Shown: positions 646 to 23,038 of the stretch, in pieces
How positions within the stretch are numbered: the first letter of the stretch is position 1
How the letters are laid out: every line of letters starts with the position of its first letter
Assembly (NCBI GenBank): GCA_033764955.1
Contig: JANRIL010000045.1
Span: 1 to 64,000 of the forward strand
Origin: Cyanobacteriota bacterium
Lineage (GTDB): Bacteria; Cyanobacteriota; Cyanobacteriia; Thermostichales; Thermostichaceae
Reading direction: 5' to 3'
DNA length: 64,000 nucleotides
Translations under genes and position numbers: made by a program
The notes under the pieces: generated by a model
What the model was told of the DNA's origin: nothing
The model's input: the letters and a program-made list of their open reading frames with translations, nothing else
The model's database searches: none

Positions 646-934
646 TCAGTGGGCAGAAACAGAAACCTCTCGGTAAAGGAACAACAGAGAACTGAGAGCC
701 TGATTTTGGGTGGGAGCGGACACTTTCTCCTCTATGGCCAAGTGGGTTAAGAAAGCATTCATCTCCTCAATGCCTATCTCCTTAGAATGTCGCTTATGGT
801 GAAATAGAATATATCGACAGAACCATAGGAAATGAAGACTTCTCGGCTTGCTAGGAGTAGTGTTTGAGCCAGAGGGCATCACTGACCTGCTCAAGGAGCT
901 TTTTAGGTCTAGGGGTAGGAGCGTTATCGTTCAT
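646..934 (-). pseudogene. intI: Integron integrase (IntI) N-terminal remnant with internal stop and frameshift
   Basis: Minus strand from ATG 934 reads MNDNAPTPRPKKLLEQVSDALWLKHYS*QAEKS, then frameshifts into RYILFHHKRH..EMNAFLTHLAIEEKVSAPTQNQALSSLLFLYREV, the characteristic IntI N-terminal SAM-like domain; the catalytic domain is missing. Confidence 0.85.
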
Positions 935-1915: not shown

Positions 1916-2008
1916 CTCTAACAGATTGTTGGAGCAGTTGGCCGAACTCTGGAAGCGGCTTCGCCGCGTCGTTTGCAACTCGGCCGCAGCTCAACAATGA
2001 CGTTACCG
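1916..2008 (+). repeat. attC site of the HNH cassette
   Basis: R'' CTCTAAC (1916-1922) is complementary to the cassette start GTTAGA; imperfect palindrome ATTGTTGGAGCAGTTGGCCGA...TCGGCCGCAGCTCAACAAT; R' GTTACCG at 2002. Confidence 0.85.
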
Positions 2009-9699: not shown

Positions 9700-12600
9700 T
9701 TAACGGCGGGCAGTCGGTTCGGGGGTAAGGCTACGCCGCTTGGAAACCATTTGATAAGCTTCCACAATATCGCCGATCACCCAAGCCTGAAACTTCTCTA
9801 CACCGATACCACACTCAAACCCAGCCGCCACCTCCCGCACGTCATCCTTAAACCGTTTGAGGGAATCCAAACGCCCCTCAAAGACCAGTTCTCCCCGTCG
9901 CCGCACCCGCAGGTGGGCGTTACGCACAATCTTGCCCGATTGCACATAGCTGCCAGCAATTGCCCCTTTGCCAATGGTAATTACTTGACGGACTTCCGCC
10001 TGACCGAGGGGTTCTTCCACCTGTTCAGGTTCCAGTAATCCTTCCATCGCCGCTCGCAGATCATCGAGCAGGTTGTAAATCACATCGTACTCGCGGATAT
10101 CCACCCCATAGCGATCCGCTAACAGACGGGCACTGGCTGCCGTGCTAGTCGTAAAGCCAAGGATAATCGCGTTACTAGCCACCGCCAAATCGACATCGGT
10201 TTCTGTGATTTCGCCGGGAGCCGACAGCAACACCCGTAGCTGCACTTCCTGCTGGGGCAGATCCTGCAAGGAGGCCAGAATAGCTTCGGCGGATCCCTGA
10301 ACATCGGTCTTGAGGATTAAATTCAGTTCCTTGAGTTGACCCTCTTGAGCTTGGGCGGAGACACTGCCCAAACTGGCTCGCCGAGATAGACTAGTTTGTT
10401 GCAGACGGGCTTGATGTTGCTCCTCTGCCCTAGTTTCCGCCACCTGACGGGCTTCCCGCTCGTCTCGATAGACCAAAAATTCGTCTCCCGCCGCTGGAAC
10501 GCCATTCAAGCCCAACAGTTGCACCGCCGAGGACGGCCCAGCCTCCTGGAGGCGGTGTCCACGGTCATCCACCATGGCTTTGACGCGACCCAGCACGGAT
10601 CCCGCCACCAAGGTATCCCCAACGCGCAATGTACCGTTTTGCACCAAAAGGGTGGCAATCGGACCACGCGATTTATCCAGGTTGGCCTCGACAACAGTTC
10701 CACGGGCGGGTCGGTCGGGATTAGCCTGCAATTCTCCAATCTCAGCCACCAGCAGGATCATTTCCAATAGGCTATCCAGGTTGAGGCGGGCTAAAGCACT
10801 AACTTCCACCATGGGAGTATCTCCCCCCCATTCCTCTGGTACCAAGCTATGTTCCGCCAGTTGTTGTTTGATTCGGTCAGGCTGGCTATCGGGTTTATCG
10901 ATTTTGTTGACCGCAACAATGATGGGAACCTGAGCTGCTTGCGCGTGGCTAATGGCTTCTAGGGTTTGGGGCTGTACGCCATCATCCGCGGCCACGACGA
11001 GAACCGCAATATCTGTGACTTTGGCTCCTCTGGCTCGCATGGCGGTGAAGGCTTCGTGGCCAGGGGTATCCAAAAAGACAACCCGCTTGCTTTCCCCTTC
11101 ATGCTGCACATCCACATGGTAGGCTCCAATCCGTTGGGTGATCCCTCCCGCCTCTCCTTCTACGACCTTGGTGTCGCGGATGGCATCCAGTAAGGTGGTT
11201 TTGCCGTGATCGACGTGACCCATAATGGTGACCACGGGAGAACGGGAGACCAGATGCTCAATGTCGTCTAGGTCGAGCATTTCCGTCTTTTTGGCGGTAG
11301 ATTCCACCTGTTCAATTTCGATGGTGTATTCCAGCTCTTTGGCGACAACCTCGATAGTGGGGCGATCCAGCAGTTGGTTAAGATTGACCATCAACCCTTT
11401 CAAAAAGAGGATCTTAATGATTTCGGTGGGGGCAATCCGCATCCGATTCGCCAATTCCTGTACAGTTAACTCTCCGTGCAGGGAAAGAATCTTTTGTTGT
11501 GGCTCTTGCTCCGTTCTGGCTGTCTCTTGAGTAGCCTGGTGCGAACGGCGTCCTCGTCCAGCTAACCCGACGCTGGGGGGCCTTACTCTCGCTAGGGGAG
11601 GGGAGGTGGCAACATGCTGAGAGGGTGGCTTAGCGCTAGGACGGGGCAGAGGTTTCAGGGTATTGAGTTCCGCCTGCTTGGCTACCACAGATAGGGTGGT
11701 GTCAATTTCTAGCGTTTCCCCTTCTCCTTCTCCTTTACGGCGGCTACGCTTCCGCTTCGCTTGGGCACCACGCCCTACCCCCCGTTTCAGGGCTAGCAAT
11801 TCTTCATCCTCAGTCTCCTCCACTTCTTTGCGGCGCAATCGTGCCACAGGCCGAACCGGGGCATCCGCCAAAACAGGATTAGGACGCACTGGTGGAGTCA
11901 GGGATCCATCCGGGTTAGCTGTTGGGCGACTGGGGGGAGCCACCAGATCTGTTTTCAGACGAGGGGTGGGGCGAAGAGCTTTGTCGGGTGATTTCGTCCC
12001 CTCCCCGTCGGGGGTAGGGATCCCTTCTTTGCCCTGGAGAGCACGGGTTTCCGCCGCTCGTGTTCCCGGTCGGACGGGGGCACCCACCAACTGAGGGCGA
12101 GGGCTGGTCGGCTTGCTGGGGACGGGAGGAGCGGCCTCCGCTGGCCGCAGCGCTTTTACAGGCTCACTCGAACGGGGTCGGGGAGAGCTTAGGCTGGGAC
12201 GAGCCGGAGGAGCTACAGAATCCCGTTCCTGCTTACCAGGAGGAACTTCTGGCTGGGGGCGAGGGCTGGGGCGACCTTCCGGCGAAGCAGGGCGGCGGCT
12301 GGGAGCAGTCGCCGCAGGGCGGACGGGCGGCTCCGAGGAACGGGGAGGGGGAGCCAGTACCGCCGGACGCTGAGGAGATTGGGGTTCTGGCGGGGGAGGG
12401 GTCGGTTCTGAGAGGGGCGTTAGATTGGGGTCACTGAGGGAGAGAGGCGGCTCCACCTTCGGACTTTCCACCAGCCGCTGAGGAGCCACTGGGCGTTGGG
12501 GTGCCAGCGGGGGAGTCTCCTTAACTGTTTTTTCGGCAACTGTTTTTTCCGCGGATTCCGGCAGAGCCATTGCATCCGTTGAAGGTGGGGAAAGAGATTC

Positions 12601-13215
12601 TGACGCTTCGGGAAGGGGGGGGCGCTGGGGAGTAGTATTTTTTTCGGGAGGGCGCTGGGGAGGACGCACCAAGGTTGCGGAAGCAGCCTCAGCAGCAGCA
12701 GACCGACTCGGACGTTGGGGCACTTCGGGCGGGAAAGCGGTTTCGGCGGCGGACGGCGGAGAAACCTCCGCAAGTGGAGGGCGAGGAGTGGAGATCTTTT
12801 CTCCAACGGGTCTCCGCACCTCCAAGATATGCTGTGGACGGTCGTTCCGGCTGGGTTTGGGCTGAGGTCGGGGGGGGGTGGCGCGGGGCTTACTAGGAGC
12901 TGGCGGGGAGGGGTTGGAGTGGGTCAAATCTCCCCGCACCTGCTGAGCCTGCTCACGGGTAATTGTACTGCTATGGCTCTTATAGGGAATCTCTAGGCGG
13001 GTACAGACATCCATAACATCGCGGTTATCCCGACCCATTTCTCGTGCCAAATCATAGATGCGAACTTTATCGGGATCCTTTTCAGACACCGCCACCTCAG
13101 AGGTCTCGCTGAGAGAGGCTGCTCCACTGCCGGAGGGAGGATCGGTAGGGGGGGAGGGATCCTGCCAAGAAGGAGGATGCTCATGAGCGAGGGAAGTGGT
13201 TTCGGATGGGGTCAT
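9700..13215 (-). CDS. infB: Translation initiation factor IF-2 with long Pro-rich N-terminus
   Basis: [11 protein letters not shown]-domain; [42 protein letters not shown]. Confidence 0.98.
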
Positions 13216-13377
13216 AGGTTAGGGGATAGAAGCCAGTAAAAGGACAGGAAAAGTAATGGGCAGGTTCTGAGGAAATGCTGATAGAGAAGGAAGTCAACTC
13301 AGGGAAATCCAGAGGAGATAGGGATCTCGCCAGAAAGGGGCATAAGACAGGATGATTCAGGCCAGCACCGCTACCTG

Positions 13378-13653
13378 CTAATGAGGGGAGGCAAGTCGCT
13401 GCCACAAAACCTCATAGATGTGAGGCGGAATGGAAGCACGGAGGGCACGACCCAGACGATTTTTCTTTTGAGCATCCTGTAGGCAGCGAGATTGACGACA
13501 TAGATAGGCCGAGCGACCCATCCCTAAATCTAACTGAACTTGTTGCGAGGAAGCCACCCGCACAACACGCCAGAATTGGGATCGAGGGGCTAGCAGACGA
13601 CAACTGACGCAACAGCGTAGGGGTTGTCGGGGGGATTGAGCAGAAGTGAACAC
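13378..13653 (-). CDS. ylxR: YlxR (RnpM) family RNA-binding protein
   Basis: PLRCCVSCR..WRVVR..GMGRSAYLC..AQKKNRLGRAL; immediately upstream of infB. Confidence 0.9.
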   Translation of the reverse strand: MFTSAQSPRQPLRCCVSCRLLAPRSQFWRVVRVASSQQVQLDLGMGRSAYLCRQSRCLQDAQKKNRLGRALRASIPPHIYEVLWQRLASPH

Positions 13654-14277
13654 GGGTTTTGTTTATTCTACTCAATAGGTGCGGCCTACCCACTAGGCGG
13701 GAAGTCCGCTTTTCTCTCCCAGTGTATTACGAGCGTCAAGCCTACAACAGAAATTGGTCAGATCTACCATCCTAGAGAGATCGTTAAGCAACTCAGGAGT
13801 CAACTGCTGCGCCCAGAAGGGGAGGCAGCTTGTAACAAACTAGAATTCCTGGTCGGAAACATACGGGTTATTGACTGAACCCTGCTCTAGCGACTTGCTA
13901 GGAGTAGTAGAGAGCATGTAATCGGCCTTGATATTTAGTCGCAGCGTTTATATCGGCGTGAACCCTAAAGCCCCAGGTTTTGCCGTGGAATCTAGAGTTG
14001 TGGGGATTAGCATTGTCATGCTGCTTGCAACGACTGCACTTCTGAGAAGTGTATCGAGCATCACGTATCTAACTTATTTGCCTTGAGCTTCAGCTTTACT
14101 AATTTAGAAACTGCTCAAGCGGATAGAAACTCCAAGAAGATATCCACTTGTTAGCTGGTTTCGTTTTTGGGTCAGGGCGTACAGAAAGGTTATCTGATTG
14201 TGCTGCCTACGCTGGTTCTTGCAGTTTTGGTATAACCAAGGTATAGCTGAAGAGTAGGAATTACAGTTAAGGTCACT

Positions 14278-14514
14278 ATGAAAACTGCAATTTCCCTTCC
14301 AGATTCAGTTTTTGATGAGGCGGAAGCACTAGCTCAGCAGTTGGGCTTGTCGCGCAGTGAGCTTTATACGAAAGCCTTGCAAGCGTATTTGAAAAAGCAC
14401 AATCGCAATCAAATCTTGCACAAGCTGAACCAAGTTTACTCTCAAGAGGCTTCCGGACTGGATCCTACGATGGCAAAGATGCAATTTATGTCTCTCCCTC
14501 GTGGGGATTGGTAA
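14278..14514 (+). CDS. CopG/RHH-type antitoxin of a MazF/PemK TA pair (in cassette)
   Basis: MKTAISLPDSVFDEAEALAQQLGLSRSELYTKAL; stop overlaps the toxin start. Confidence 0.85.
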   Translation: MKTAISLPDSVFDEAEALAQQLGLSRSELYTKALQAYLKKHNRNQILHKLNQVYSQEASGLDPTMAKMQFMSLPRGDW

Positions 14515-14852
14515 TGTATCGGGGAGAAATTTGGTGGGCGAATTTACCTGATCCAGTGGGTTCAGAGCCTGGATATCGTCGTCCCGTTTTAGTCGTTCAA
14601 GATGATCCTTATTACTCAAAGCCGTATCAGTAAAGTTGTCGTTGTTATTATCACTTCAAATATTCAGTTGGCAGAAGCCCCAGGTAATGTATTTTACCGA
14701 AAGCAGCAACAGGCTTGTCTAAGGATTCAGTCGCTAATGTATCTCAAATTCTCACAGTCGATAAAGCATTCCTGGTTGAATGTATTGGTTCTCTGCCAAA
14801 TGACTTACAGGAGGAGATAGATGATGGACTACGAACAATCTTGTATCTGTAG
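14514..14852 (+). pseudogene. mazF: MazF/PemK toxin, inactivated by two frameshifts
   Basis: MYRGEIWWANLPDPVGSEPGYRRPVLVVQDD / TQSRISKVVVVIITSNIQLAEAPGNV / LPKAATGLSKDSVANVSQILTVDK..LRTILYL; the middle segment is out of frame and the start frame meets TAA before the second shift. Confidence 0.85.
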
Positions 14853-14859
14853 CAACACT

Positions 14860-14944
14860 TGCTAACAAGTCGCTACCGGAACGTGGCAAGCTGGTCGATT
14901 GAGTATTCAAAGTTATCTGCGTCCGGTGAGTTTGGTCGTTAATC
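14860..14944 (+). repeat. attC site of the solitary MazEF cassette (cassette 14151-14938)
   Basis: R'' TGCTAAC is complementary to the cassette start G/TTAGC at 14150; inner ACCGGA..TCCGGT pairing; R' G/TTAATC at 14938. Confidence 0.85.
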
Positions 14945-15166
14945 TTCTTGGTTCTCCATTGATTGCGAATGCCTGACAAATCCTCTAAGGCGTAGGCATT
15001 TGCCCCGTGAAGTGCAGCCAGTTTCTTGCTTATACGGTGGCTGCAGTCGCGCATGAACCGCTTCTCTCTGCCTGACGTAGTTCCCTATACCCTTTAGCTT
15101 TGCTGACAAGGGCTGGTTGTCCATTCTTTTCCTGAAGAGAGCCTTGAATTGAGGGATCCCGAACCC

Positions 15167-15435
<269 letters not shown>

Positions 15436-15437
<2 letters not shown>

Positions 15438-15890
15438 ATGGGGTTTCTCAATGCCGTTTCGTGATGACCCATTCGTCAAGGGCTGACAACGTCTCGCGTC
15501 CCAACTAAAAAAGCTTACATACTAGCTCAGCGGTTAGAGCACTTTCCTCAAGAGAAAGGTGTCGTAGGTTCAAATCCTACATATGACCAACAGCTTTTTT
15601 GACTTGCGTGAGGCTCATTTTTCTGGGTAAAGGGCTGCGCCCTAACTTCCAGAGCCTACATACTCTCCCAAACAAGGTGCGCCTATGGAGGTAGGTGCTG
15701 CAAGCCTGAACCTAAATAGCAGGCGTAGATAGGGGGATCCCCCTCTAACTCTACATGGCTCTGGTTACTAGCGCGGCTCTGCATACCCGTCATGATCCTC
15801 ACTCATCTCAAGCCAATTCCAACAACGGCATCCGATGTCAGAGAAAGATCGTTGGATCCATCCTTCGATAGCGGGTAGCGATCCAACCAT
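15436..15890 (+). ncRNA. Putative large structured ncRNA with an embedded tRNA-like domain (candidate Y-RNA analogue)
   Basis: No ORF of 60 aa or more in ~470 nt; long-range pairing TTTCTC/ATGCCGTT (15444-58) with AACGGCAT/GAGAAA (15824-46); D, anticodon and T arms at 15523-15580; several further hairpins. Confidence 0.7.
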
Positions 15891-15907
15891 GATGAGGAGG
15901 TGAAAAC

Positions 15908-17104
15908 ATGTTCGATACTTATGATCAAGAAGCTCCCACCCAAACGGTGGTCAGCAGCAAAACCCTTTTAAGTTTGGGCTGGCAGCCCCTCTATCGCCAA
16001 CTGGACTGGCTTTATTTGCAGCGCTTGATCACCCAAGATCCGGGGGAGTTTTGGCGGCACACGCTGGATGTGTGCGGAGAAGTTGCCAGCACCCTGGGGC
16101 GAACTGAATATACCTGGTGGGCAAACTGGCTGGGGGTGATCTCCGGCTATACCCGTCAGGAAGTGGAGAAGTTTTGGGACTATATCACTCCTGCTCCTAC
16201 GGAACCCAACTGGCGGCAACCCACCCTCACCACCCTTACCCCCGTTACTTATCCGGTGAGCCGTCAAGGGATCCCCATTCACGCTCTCTTGCATCGTTTG
16301 CAGGAGCTAACCGTGTTGAAGGTTTTAGAGTGGCTGGGGCCTCCTGACCGGATTACTCAACTGTTTCAGGGGCGATATTACTATCTGCCGCTGGATCGCT
16401 TTCGTCAATGGCATCAGTTGCAGGCGGATGGCACCATTTGGGGCTATTGGCAGGCTGCTGACATCTGGTTACAAATTACCCCCTATGGATCCCGACAGCG
16501 CAGCTACACCCTGATCGGGTCGGATCTCGATCCCTGGATCCGCAAAGCTACCCATAATTTAGCGGTGATGGTGAGTGGTTATCAAAGCCGGATTGGGCAG
16601 GTGCAGAGTTTGCACCCCCTCCGCAGTTTCCCCGCCGAGATTCAGGCTTTTTCGGATGTTGTGCAGGAGCGAGTCTGGCAACAGTCGCAGCTAGCGATTT
16701 TGGTGCATGGGGATCCCGGAACGGGCAAAACCGCCTGGACTCAAGCCATCGCCAAAGAGATCTTGGTGCCACTGGGGTATGTGATCTTTATTTTGGATCA
16801 TGATGCCGTTGAGAATTTTGTTCCTCCCAGCTATCTCAGCCGGATCGGTCTAATTATCAATGAAGCCGATAATTTGGCACAAAACCGCGCTCAAACGGCG
16901 GGATTTAACCACACCAAAACGGAACATGTTTTGAGCCTTTTGGATGGCACCCTTCATCAAAGTGTGTTGGATGAATCCCAGGATCAGCAAGCCCCTCGTT
17001 TGGTGGTGTTGCTAACCTGCAATACCCTGGAGCGGATGGATCCCGCCGTTTTGCGAAAAGGCCGGATTGATTGTCTCTATGAGTTTCGGCATCGGTTTGT
17101 TTAG
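15908..17104 (+). CDS. AAA+ ATPase with uncharacterised N-terminal domain
   Basis: Walker A GDPGTGKT, variant Walker B LIINEAD, second region of homology TCNTLERMDPAVLRKGRID; RBS GAGGAGG. Confidence 0.9.
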   Translation: MFDTYDQEAPTQTVVSSKTLLSLGWQPLYRQLDWLYLQRLITQDPGEFWRHTLDVCGEVASTLGRTEYTWWANWLGVISGYTRQEVEKFWDYITPAPTEPNWRQPTLTTLTPVTYPVSRQGIPIHALLHRLQELTVLKVLEWLGPPDRITQLFQGRYYYLPLDRFRQWHQLQADGTIWGYWQAADIWLQITPYGSRQRSYTLIGSDLDPWIRKATHNLAVMVSGYQSRIGQVQSLHPLRSFPAEIQAFSDVVQERVWQQSQLAILVHGDPGTGKTAWTQAIAKEILVPLGYVIFILDHDAVENFVPPSYLSRIGLIINEADNLAQNRAQTAGFNHTKTEHVLSLLDGTLHQSVLDESQDQQAPRLVVLLTCNTLERMDPAVLRKGRIDCLYEFRHRFV

Positions 17105-17218
17105 CCACGGATGGAGAGCTGTGAGTTTCTCCATTTCTCCTCCTATTCGATTGATCAATTTTGATTGGTCAATTTTTAGATAGGTTGATCATTTTCTGGA
17201 TGATATTTTGTTTTTTAG

Positions 17219-18682
<1,464 letters not shown>

Positions 18683-18734
18683 GGGGCTGGCTTTCCTGCC
18701 AGTTTCGCCGAGGATGACTCAATCAATCTGCCTA

Positions 18735-18765
18735 GGGATCCCCACCGAGCGGGGATCCCTTTTAT
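18735..18765 (+). terminator. Probable intrinsic terminator after the vWA gene
   Basis: AGGGATCCCC..GGGGATCCCT hairpin followed by TTTT. Confidence 0.55.
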
Positions 18766-18789
18766 TCAATTTACTCACATTTGCTCAAC

Positions 18790-18980
18790 GCAAGGAAGTT
18801 TTTTAGGGCTAGGTGTAAGGTTATTATCGTTCACTAAGTCAGATAAAAACCCTTCACAAATGATTATTCTACGAAATGTTGACCATGCAGACACTGCAGA
18901 GCGATATTTTACTTGTGGACAAATAAAGGCTTTGCTAAGTTAGATATCAGGTATCTTGCCATTGAATCATATGTTAGCTG
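18790..18980. promoter_or_regulatory. Integron platform 2: ~14-codon intI stub (minus strand) and putative attI (G18973/TTAGCT)
   Basis: Minus strand from GTG 18834 reads MNDNNLTPSPKKL, as intI at 934; TTATCGTTCA.TAAG..AGATAAAAACC shared with 924-951; ends CATATGTTAG versus CACATGTTAG. Confidence 0.75.
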
Positions 18981-19051
18981 ACTTCTCCCTCAGATTATGA
19001 GAATACTTTGAAAGGGCTTGGCACTCTAATTAGCGGTAAGGTTGTCTGATA

Positions 19052-19870
19052 GTGCAGCATAAGGTCTCGAACAATGGGAAAAATGTTTACTACAGCAAAA
19101 TTGCTGATATTTATGATCAAACTCGCTGGCTGACAGAACAAGTCGCTGAGGAAGTTGCAGATTTTATTCTTACTCTAGTCAAGGCAACTCCTGAAACCAC
19201 TTTTTTGGAACCTGGTATAGGAACTGGGTTAAACGTTCTTCCTTTAGTAAGACGTGGCTATTGTGTGACTGGCATTGATGTTTCTCAGGAAATGCTTAAC
19301 CAGTTTTGTCAAAAGCTGCCTGAAATTCCCCCGAATCTGAAACTGATTCATGGTGATGCCTCACAACTACCTTTTGCAGACACCAGCTTTGACGTTGTGC
19401 TAACTGTTCATATGCTTCATACTGTTTCCAACTTAGGAACATTTTTAGATGAAATCGATCGTGTCCTAAAACCAAAAGGTTTCTATCTTAATGCTCAATG
19501 GATTACCCCACCCTCACGACTAGAATTTGAGCAGTATTTCAAAACTATCTTATCTAAGTATCAAGAGCCACAACCTTCACAACAGCCAGGTAAAGTAATT
19601 AACGAAATTAATGTAGAGAAGTACTTACGTAATAAGGGGTATCAGTGTAATTATTTGATAGCTAAGGAATGGACGGTCAGCAACCAGGTTCAGGAATTAC
19701 TCAGTTTCTACAGGTCACGGGCATACGGGTTGTGTTGGCTCGTTCCAGATGAAGCGTTTCATCTGGCAATGGAAGAGTTGGAAGTATTTTGTCATGACTA
19801 TTATGGTTCATTGGAGGTGGAGTTATCATCCCAGGCACGATTTGAAATATGGGCATACACCGCAAGCTAA
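19052..19870 (+). CDS. Class I SAM-dependent methyltransferase (cassette)
   Basis: FLEPGIGTG, TGIDVSQEML, GDASQLPFADTSFDVV, RVLKPKG. Confidence 0.9.
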   Translation: MQHKVSNNGKNVYYSKIADIYDQTRWLTEQVAEEVADFILTLVKATPETTFLEPGIGTGLNVLPLVRRGYCVTGIDVSQEMLNQFCQKLPEIPPNLKLIHGDASQLPFADTSFDVVLTVHMLHTVSNLGTFLDEIDRVLKPKGFYLNAQWITPPSRLEFEQYFKTILSKYQEPQPSQQPGKVINEINVEKYLRNKGYQCNYLIAKEWTVSNQVQELLSFYRSRAYGLCWLVPDEAFHLAMEELEVFCHDYYGSLEVELSSQARFEIWAYTAS

Positions 19871-19950
19871 CACTTCACGGCAGCGGACGGTCGAAAGTCG
19901 CTTATACTGTGTTCGAGGTTATCTACCGCCGCTACGTTATGCCGTTAGGC
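19865..19950 (+). repeat. attC site
   Basis: R'' AGCTAAC matches the cassette start GTTAGCT; GCAGCGGACGG..CCGCCGCTAC pairing; R' GTTAGGC at 19944. Confidence 0.85.
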
Positions 19951-19956
19951 AGAAAT

Positions 19957-20634
19957 ATGAAAATCACTGAAGTTCGCCAACAGAGCTGGCACACCCTAAT
20001 TTGTAATTACTACGTTTGCTCCTCATGTAGTGTTGTGGATCGTGATTCATCGCGCATGACAATTGGCACTCCTTGCAAGAAGTGCAGTGCACCAAGCCCT
20101 TCTGCTCGCTTATATTTCGGAGTAGAACTTTGCCAGCTTGTGAATTCTATTCAGGATCTATATTTTATTCGTAGCGGAAAAATCACGCACGAGGATGAGG
20201 ACTTCGGAACACAGAAGTATGACATGGAATCCGATATGCGCCCGATATCTGCCATATTATTCTGCACTATTTTTGATGTCCTGATGACAGGGCTAATCAA
20301 AAATATAATGCTTCGAAAAAGCATCCCACAGGAAATTCAAGATTTGTTACTCAAGAACTACCAGTTTGCGATGAAAAAACGCGATCAGCTTTATCCAAAA
20401 CTTCTGAAGGAATCATTCCTCGAATCGATAAAAACAATTAAGGTGGAGACGACACACGATTTCGAGCCTCATTTCGATTATGCGGATAAACTAGCTAAAA
20501 AAAGAAATAAATTTGTTCACAAAGGTGTAAAATGGGTCTTCACGGAAGACGAACTTGACAACATTCCGCATGAATTGCACCCACTGTTTAGCGGTTTTGT
20601 TGCCCTACATAATTATCAAAATGATAAAATCTAA
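19957..20634 (+). CDS. Cassette protein: Zn-ribbon plus HEPN-like domain
   Basis: CSSC..CKKC at the N-terminus; RNKFVH (RxxxxH) near the C-terminus; AT-rich. Confidence 0.6.
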   Translation: MKITEVRQQSWHTLICNYYVCSSCSVVDRDSSRMTIGTPCKKCSAPSPSARLYFGVELCQLVNSIQDLYFIRSGKITHEDEDFGTQKYDMESDMRPISAILFCTIFDVLMTGLIKNIMLRKSIPQEIQDLLLKNYQFAMKKRDQLYPKLLKESFLESIKTIKVETTHDFEPHFDYADKLAKKRNKFVHKGVKWVFTEDELDNIPHELHPLFSGFVALHNYQNDKI

Positions 20635-21150: not shown

Positions 21151-21368
21151 CGATGATCCAAGTTAAGAGTGAGCAACAAGTTTTGCAAGAAGGGTTTCAG
21201 ATTTTACTATCTAATATGAAACCGTCTGATGTTGCTCGTTTCTGGGCAGTTTGCAATATCGGTCAGGGAGATTACTTGAAACTCAAAGACCAGCTTTTTG
21301 CCCAAGAATCTGTAGGCAGCTTGTACTCCAAGATTGTAGACTTACAAGCATCAAAGCGCGAAACCTAA
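21147..21368 (+). CDS. Probable antitoxin partner of the PIN toxin
   Basis: 73 aa, directly downstream of the PIN gene; GQGDYLKLKDQLF motif typical of these partners. Confidence 0.65.
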   Translation: MAMIQVKSEQQVLQEGFQILLSNMKPSDVARFWAVCNIGQGDYLKLKDQLFAQESVGSLYSKIVDLQASKRET

Positions 21369-21449
21369 TAATTCAAATGCAGCAGATGGTTGAGAGGTTT
21401 TGGTGCTGAGTTCAAGTTTGTTTTCCACCGCTGATTTGAGCCGTTATAC
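21363..21449 (+). repeat. attC site (R'' mutated to AAT)
   Basis: ACCTAAT..TCAAATGCAGC....GCTGATTTGA..G/TTATAC at 21443. Confidence 0.75.
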
Positions 21450-22953: not shown

Positions 22954-23038
22954 GTCTAACAATACAGTGGAGCAGACGATAGAGAATCTTCGCGCTACGT
23001 TCTGGCCTACCCGCCGCCGCTCACTTTAGTTGTTATCT
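22954..23038 (+). repeat. attC site closing the second array
   Basis: R'' GTCTAAC, AGTGGAGC..GCTCACT pairing, R' G/TTATCT at 23032. Confidence 0.8.

Follow-up and report, generated by a model that had tools for sequence, protein, structure and literature searches.

A probable natural insertion of an integron cassette at a secondary GTT site within a tnpB relic of a cyanobacterium

Introduction

The older consensus for the secondary sites at which integron cassettes are inserted is GWTMW. More recent work describes efficient insertion at sites named attG, with the consensus 5'-GWT-3', and, in its available text, reports 3400 lone-attC elements (SALINs) in 2469 genomes (bioRxiv 10.1101/2022.09.11.507474). 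The same text cites older plasmid cases, namely the aadB cassette in RSF1010 and in pRAY. The evidence for the attG route has so far come mainly from forced assays in E. coli and from counts of lone attC sites.

Here we examine a locus of this kind in a cyanobacterium. The window, by which we mean the whole stretch of 64,000 nucleotides that was analysed (contig JANRIL010000045.1, positions 1 to 64,000; coordinates given with no contig name refer to it), belongs to a draft genome of 3.8 Mb in 48 contigs, 89% complete (G000). An earlier note, made from the letters of this stretch, had read part of it as a solitary integron cassette integrated at a bare GTT inside a tnpB gene. We describe the anatomy and exact junctions of this segment, the membership of its attC site in the family of the resident integrons, the presence of intact integrase genes (intI) in the genome, a donor-type form of the cassette borne in an array, and an uninterrupted comparator of the target gene. 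From these observations we conclude that the segment 14151-14938 is very probably a natural insertion made by recombination of an attC with a secondary site of the attG (GWT) type.

Results

Boundaries and junctions of the insert

The left junction of the insert reads ...ATATCCACTTG|TTAGCTGG, with its G at 14150, and the right junction ...GTTTGGTCG|TTAATCTT, with its G at 14938. Between them lies a unit of 788 nt (14151-14938, + strand), which runs from the TT of the left G|TT to the G of the attC R' core, G14150 being the target G of G|TT. The boundaries were defined in three independent ways, which agree to the base: homology to the same cassette in a complete genome of the same order (G019) extends over 14150-14941; the homology of the flanks to an intact tnpB (L069, described below) breaks at 14152/14938; and the covariance model R1, built from attC sites of the source genome, places the GTT of R' at 14938-14940. 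The sequence itself, the G019 alignment and R1 all confirm a segment that begins with TTAGC and ends in an attC, as the earlier note had it. Its observation that R'' is complementary to the cassette start is equally correct: GCTAAC is the reverse complement of the G at 14938 followed by the TTAGC at 14151-14155. Over seven bases, R'' (TGCTAAC) and the cassette start match at 6 of 7 positions, and the R' restored by joining the G to the cassette start, GTTAGCT, is complementary to R'' at 6 of 7.

The cassette is oriented antisense to tnpB and splits an asparagine codon (AAC on the minus strand). The crossover had been placed at a GTT with no extra target duplication; the GTT shared by the two flanks in the comparison with L069 upholds this, but what stands at both junctions is GTTA and not GTT alone. 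The GTT of the target agrees with the published attG consensus, 5'-GWT-3', and the longer target GTTAA with the older GWTMW consensus. An assembly artefact, with the assembler joining the cassette to the tnpB relic through a short repeat common to both, might be entertained in a draft of 48 contigs and 89% completeness whose attC family is repeated about 79 times, but it is very improbable here, as both junctions would need chimerism at one GTT of one gene, only GTTA is common to the junctions, and the cassette body is unique in its genome, where the last ~80 nt alone have matches elsewhere (78-82% identity).

The attC site and its family

The core consensus of attC sites is RYYYAAC ... GTTRRRY. 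The attC of the cassette occupies 14860-14944 (+ strand, 85 nt), with R'' at 14860-14866 (TGCTAAC), an L''/L' helix formed by ACCGGA/TCCGGT, and R' at 14938-14944 (GTTAATC), of which 14939-14944 are target DNA. R'' agrees with the consensus at 5 of its 7 positions, and the site combines core boxes of this type with the complement of R'' at the cassette start.

The site was evaluated with R1, a covariance model made from 53 full-length, MAFFT-aligned attC sites of G000; the training sites include the arrays beside both intact intI genes, and the window site was held out. RNAalifold predicted no pairs and no consensus structure on the 53-site MAFFT alignment, and for this reason the structure of the model was drawn by hand from the sequences, with a TAAC/GTTA pairing, a middle helix, two L-type helices and two conserved unpaired columns, and was then tested by counting pairs. 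In the resulting hairpin of 20 pairs, 83.7% of the cells were paired, compared with 70.1% in column shuffles, and 153 cells were compensatory, with both sides changed, compared with 57.7 in the shuffles. The observed values for paired cells, both-side changes and covariation score were reached by none of 500 shuffles, and those for the two measures that count pairs or pair types by one of 500. When control partners were slid by 1-3 columns, 28-50% of the cells were paired. Compensatory changes occur in 16 pairs of the family structure, and the unpaired columns 17 and 25 are conserved.

The window site matches R1 with 52.3 bits over model positions 1-87 of 87, on the + strand only, with an E-value of 4.1e-10 over the window, 2.4e-8 per genome, and 5.2e-11 with filters off over 12000-20000. 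It pairs at 4 of 4 positions of TAAC/GTTA, at 9 of 10 of the L helices and at 4 of 6 of the middle helix, including two G-T pairs, in keeping with the imperfect hairpin of attC sites, in which the R''/R' and L''/L' boxes are paired, bulged bases are conserved and the centre varies. A second model, an HMM made from eight repeats of the array on contig C9, gave 84 genome matches at E<1, among which the window attC appears at full length with E 0.067. Its closest siblings in its own genome are C7:3469-3555, C12:18168-18255 and C1:44904-44990. The window attC belongs to the attC family of the resident integrons, and the assignment of 14860-14944 to an attC is sustained by a covariance model, one built from the attC sites of the genome itself rather than the model of IntegronFinder.

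As a single sequence the site is unremarkable. DNA folds of the window attC were no better than those of shuffled sequences (z of -0.53 for the top strand and -0.29 for the bottom strand), and the bottom strand, at -5.6 kcal/mol, folds more weakly than 52 of the 53 family sites (median -11.1). A search of 13600-15700 against Rfam returned a tRNA and chance matches only, with no attC-type family. With R1 run unfiltered and E allowed up to 10, the stretch 12000-14859 gave no attC match on the + strand, which means that the left junction is not an att site. As to attC partners, the left side of the cassette is plain, while the unit is bounded by G|TT at both ends; the nearest attC to the cassette lies 4.9 kb away, at 19865, and there is no other within 4 kb.

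The tnpB relic on both sides of the insert

On the minus strand, both flanks of the insert read as tnpB. The part downstream of the insertion extends over 13799-14150 (coding part 13904-14149) and the part upstream over 14939-15075 (...GREKRFMRDCSHRISKKLAALHGANAYALEDLSGIRNQWRTKKI), the latter truncated and frameshifted further upstream. Translated on this strand, 14941-15066 yields ...ALEDLSGIRNQWRTKKI, and KWISSWSFYPLEQF... results from the sequence that runs down from 14149. The downstream part, which translates as KWISSWSFY...RYTSQKCSRC...HADINAA, matches PF07282 with 36.6 bits (cut-off 26.3). On the NF040570 model the upstream part occupies positions 266-302 with 8 residues spare, and the downstream part, from its third residue, positions 314-384, so that the two are collinear; as fragments, both score below the full-length cut-off of 100.

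Intact homologues give the same picture. Six TnpB proteins from a large protein collection (P0002-P0007, 349-370 aa, carrying PF01385 and PF07282) match the upstream part in tblastn with their residues 216-267, and are 60-65% identical to the downstream part. When the insert was removed in silico, all six aligned across the junction as one gap-free HSP (88-122 aa, 64-70% identity); when it was left in place, each split into two or three HSPs. The metagenome contig L069, found by an exact 24-mer of the left flank, encodes an intact TnpB of 389 aa with NKKVNKWISSWSFYQLEQF at the site. Window positions 13799-14152 align to L069 1850-1499, and 14938-15066 to L069 1501-1373, each with 80% DNA identity, and the two flanks abut there, overlapping by exactly GTT. 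L069 represents a different copy of the IS family, in a different genome, and not an orthologous empty locus. The tnpB flanks were absent from all 30 relatives searched, among which no true empty site was seen and TnpB matches were only 33-38% identical; nor was a second copy of the relic found in the source genome.

The proposal that excision of the cassette rejoins tnpB in frame is therefore well founded, given the gap-free alignments of the six homologues and the contiguous flanks in L069. Of the description of the target as a tnpB gene, the homology stands, while the gene itself proves to be a decayed, N-terminally truncated relic with stops. Its RuvC-like and zinc-ribbon C-terminal region is collinear with the TnpB family, and only about the last 170 of some 370-389 residues are left. 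Four in-frame stops interrupt the 82 codons that follow the junction, and the upstream part before it has additional stops as well as a frameshift. The target was, or has since become, a tnpB pseudogene.

These alignments bear on a different history, in which the segment is a fragment of a former array and the tnpB parts never formed one gene, but stem, for example, from two separate IS copies or from an IS that inserted into an array. Arrays often harbour IS elements, and the window does contain an intI fragment (655-831) and three attC sites 4.9-8 kb downstream of the cassette. Such a history is contradicted by the collinear parts, gap-free and in frame once the cassette is removed, by the abutting flanks of the uninterrupted homologue, by the lack of any attC, even a degenerate one, 5' of the cassette between 12000 and 14859, and by infB and other core genes directly upstream; we consider it very improbable compared with the insertion of a cassette into a single tnpB.

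Adjoining the tnpB relic, ARAGORN predicts a tRNA-Leu (anticodon CAA) of 74 nt at 15515-15588 (+ strand), without the long variable arm expected of leucine tRNAs; it scores 44.9 bits with the Rfam tRNA model.

Contents of the cassette

The cassette opens with a 5' untranslated leader of 127 nt (14151-14277, + strand), which is conserved in alignments with the G019 copies; a consensus promoter scan found no promoter in it. The antitoxin gene follows at 14278-14514 (+ strand), an intact ORF of 78 aa of the ribbon-helix-helix or VapB-like kind, whose scores with the Pfam models RHH_3 (18.6 bits) and VapB_antitoxin (17.3 bits) and with NCBIfam NF050181 (21.5 bits) all lie below the respective cut-offs. 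Next to it, at 14514-14852 (+ strand), is a PemK/MazF-type toxin pseudogene, in which PF02452 is found in pieces: positions 2-32 (38.8 bits) and positions 70-109 (28.9 bits; cut-off 23.1 for both) are both read in frame 0, with the middle section in frame +1. Alignment to the gene of G019, which is intact and encodes 112 aa (L024:6299-6637), places, in the assembled sequence, one additional base near 14607 and one missing base near 14693/14694. The two frameshifts compensate each other and leave about 29 codons out of frame, with a stop at 14631-14633. A PemK_toxin domain with a small antitoxin gene 5' of it characterises the unit as a type II toxin-antitoxin (TA) module of the PemK/MazF type. 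The reading of the segment as a cassette is upheld, with the correction that its toxin gene is broken by two frameshifts; with a broken toxin and an orphaned antitoxin, the module is no longer able to stabilise anything.

The same cassette in arrays of other cyanobacteria

G019 contains two copies of the cassette, 77-79% identical to that of the window. One of them (C1:2580629-2581421) aligns to window positions 14150-14941 and nothing beyond, with 77% identity over the whole length. It stands between two attC sites, and the R' of the preceding attC, GTTAGCT, starts the cassette; its array, with nine R1 attC matches, starts next to an intI that is split (2574022-2575093). The other copy, too, comes after an attC-like repeat, and a further intI fragment is 4 kb away from it. 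In a wider search, antitoxin homologues were found in 282 stretches of a species-genome collection, of which 80, nearly all from cyanobacteria, were kept; the homologues are 72-94% identical and come from many cyanobacteria. In 12 of these 80 loci an R1 attC stands at the distance from the ATG that it has in the window, and at least seven of the 80 have another, upstream attC that ends 123-127 nt before the ATG, which corresponds to the start of the window cassette. Since the array-borne copies have the same ends, the boundaries in the window are those of a cassette that circulates in cyanobacterial arrays. ORFs with one attC, G|TT at both ends and occurrence as a unit of arrays are all found for this segment, as for an integron cassette.

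The occurrence in arrays also weighs on whether the unit might be a small transposon or a MITE-like TA element that entered tnpB with a target duplication of GTT or GTTA, its attC-like end being incidental. Formally, GTTA at both junctions is what a target duplication of 3-4 bp leaves, and the single-sequence fold of the attC is, as noted, ordinary. Yet inspection by eye revealed no terminal inverted repeats, the unit has no transposase, its 3' end matches the attC family model along the full length and on one strand only, and units with identical ends stand head-to-tail among attC sites in arrays near intI, both in G019 and in other cyanobacteria. A transposon origin is accordingly given very little credence, and the unit is treated below as an integron cassette.

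At four of the loci (L077, L114, L084 and L085) the TA cassette has its own attC and no R1 match at the usual position of the preceding attC; L077 has another sequence in place of the GTTA with which the cassette usually starts. These may be further secondary-site or attI insertions of the TA cassette in other species.

Integrons and attC sites in the source genome

The source genome has two intact intI genes, at C9:19-960 (463 bits with TIGR02249, open frame of 370 aa) and at C38:63588-64529 (451 bits, open frame of 363 aa), both well above the cut-off of 265, which none of 14 control genomes exceeded. Each is adjoined by a divergent array with the same attC family. On C9, an attI-like GTTAGGC lies about 240 nt from intI, and the cassettes after it each close with a repeat of about 86 nt, which starts with ..CTAAC and ends with GTTA..; the layout at the C38 intI is the same, on the opposite strand. 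In the C9 array (L012), at 2536-2647, the second attC is directly followed by an extra half-site of 26 nt (…CTGCGGCGGGTGATGGGCAGCGTTAGGC), which repeats the L'-R' arm and may be the remains of a deleted cassette.

Applied to the whole genome, R1 detected 79 attC-like sites at E<=0.01 on 28 of the 48 contigs, 53 of the 79 having served to train the model. A 4-kb rule groups the 79 sites into 50 clusters, of which 35 are solitary, a number possibly inflated by contig ends that split clusters. These counts suggest an attC pool far more scattered than two integrons would lead one to expect. Neither a search for repeated sequence downstream of the 35 solitary sites nor a heuristic combining the R''-complement rule with junction-spanning ORFs gave decisive further footprints at these sites; exact 7-mer matches were found at 12 of the 35, where a rough estimate gives about 8 by chance.

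Five attC sites (C4:15557, C11:33788(-), C23:45268(-), C27:18905 and C27:112546(-)) share, from the GTT of R' onward, a motif of about 21 nt, GTTATCGAATTGATnACAGAC, with the palindromic arms GTTATC/GATAAC, beyond which their sequences are unrelated. This motif may be a shared right half of attI that marks the ends of arrays, or a preferred target.

Two further sets of integron features occur in the window. At its start there is an intI fragment at 655-831 (- strand; TIGR02249 positions 23-81, 58.8 bits), 13 kb from the cassette, and, 1.1 kb from this fragment and divergent from it, a weak attC-like match at 1916-2008 (+ strand; 22 bits, E 0.007); together they look like a decayed integron platform. 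Three attC sites at 19865-19950, 21363-21449 and 22954-23038 (+ strand; 78.9, 85.4 and 54.3 bits) are spaced by about 1.5 kb, with no integrase alongside, and this cluster begins 4.9 kb from the lone cassette.

Discussion

The locus has a single attC, and its target is a non-att GTT inside tnpB coding sequence. We propose that an IntI would have recombined the folded attC of a free TA cassette with a double-stranded G|TT lying within the coding region of tnpB, an accessory gene of the IS200/IS605 type, the target being neither attI nor another attC. Crossover between G and TT would place the 788-nt cassette antisense to tnpB and leave a GTT at each junction, without further duplication. The source of the cassette would have been the pool present in classical arrays of integrons, here and in related cyanobacteria. 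This agrees with the earlier note, which had seen in the segment an IntI-mediated insertion outside an integron, and it is supported by the attC membership, the arrays and the collinear tnpB parts; we infer the catalysis by IntI, and with it which IntI acted, when, and on what circular or single-stranded substrate.

Later decay would account for the present state of the locus: the toxin gene would have gained two frameshifts while the antitoxin stayed intact, tnpB would have collected stops and lost its N-terminal part, and the attC would now fold weakly, in part because its R' partner is target sequence. Toxin gene, target gene and attC fold all show degradation, and the event is therefore an old one. 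Judging from the folding predictions, the attC is weakened and the cassette is probably stuck.

The mechanism itself is already known, and the value of the locus lies in a triple comparison, exact to the base, in a cyanobacterium. With a natural donor form, the product and an uninterrupted target side by side, it indicates that the attG route operates in the wild and outside the Proteobacteria; as a base-exact case it also displays the aftermath of such an insertion, in which the toxin was lost, the antitoxin kept and the attC weakened. One could go further and suppose that, in this lineage, insertion at secondary (attG) sites is a main way of keeping cassettes rather than a rare side reaction. 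We regard this broader idea as tentative, and doubtful at present. If it were so, the cassettes would form a pool dispersed over the whole genome, for which the tnpB footprint would provide the first natural proof exact to the base. This genome, with so scattered a set of cassettes, would lend itself to asking if lone cassettes come from insertion or from the break-up of arrays.

Comparison with described systems places the locus as follows. TA cassettes of sedentary chromosomal integrons, as the available text on them describes (PMC11023631), likewise consist of a type II TA pair with its own attC in each cassette; here the toxin is broken and the antitoxin orphaned. The aadB insertions in RSF1010 and pRAY, as far as the text citing them relates (bioRxiv 10.1101/2022.09.11.507474), share with the present case a complete single cassette placed at a non-att site through the integrase. 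They concern resistance cassettes on plasmids of clinical bacteria, located behind a promoter and expressed, whereas the cassette described here carries a TA pair, lies on the chromosome in antisense orientation to a decayed IS gene, and is itself in decay. The closest match is with the attG sites and SALINs of the same work, in which, as here, a single cassette with its own attC lies away from attI and attC, at a plain G|TT target, with a gene disrupted and only the shared core duplicated. The SALIN definition of lacking an integrase, as worded there, holds only locally in our case, as the genome has intact intI elsewhere. That work tested IntI1-3 in E. coli and counted SALINs across RefSeq genomes, and its available text presents no reconstructed natural junction and does not contain the word cyanobacteria; in comparison with it, the present locus offers an apparently cyanobacterial host, the two halves of the target gene, a comparator free of the insert and the same cassette in its array-borne form.
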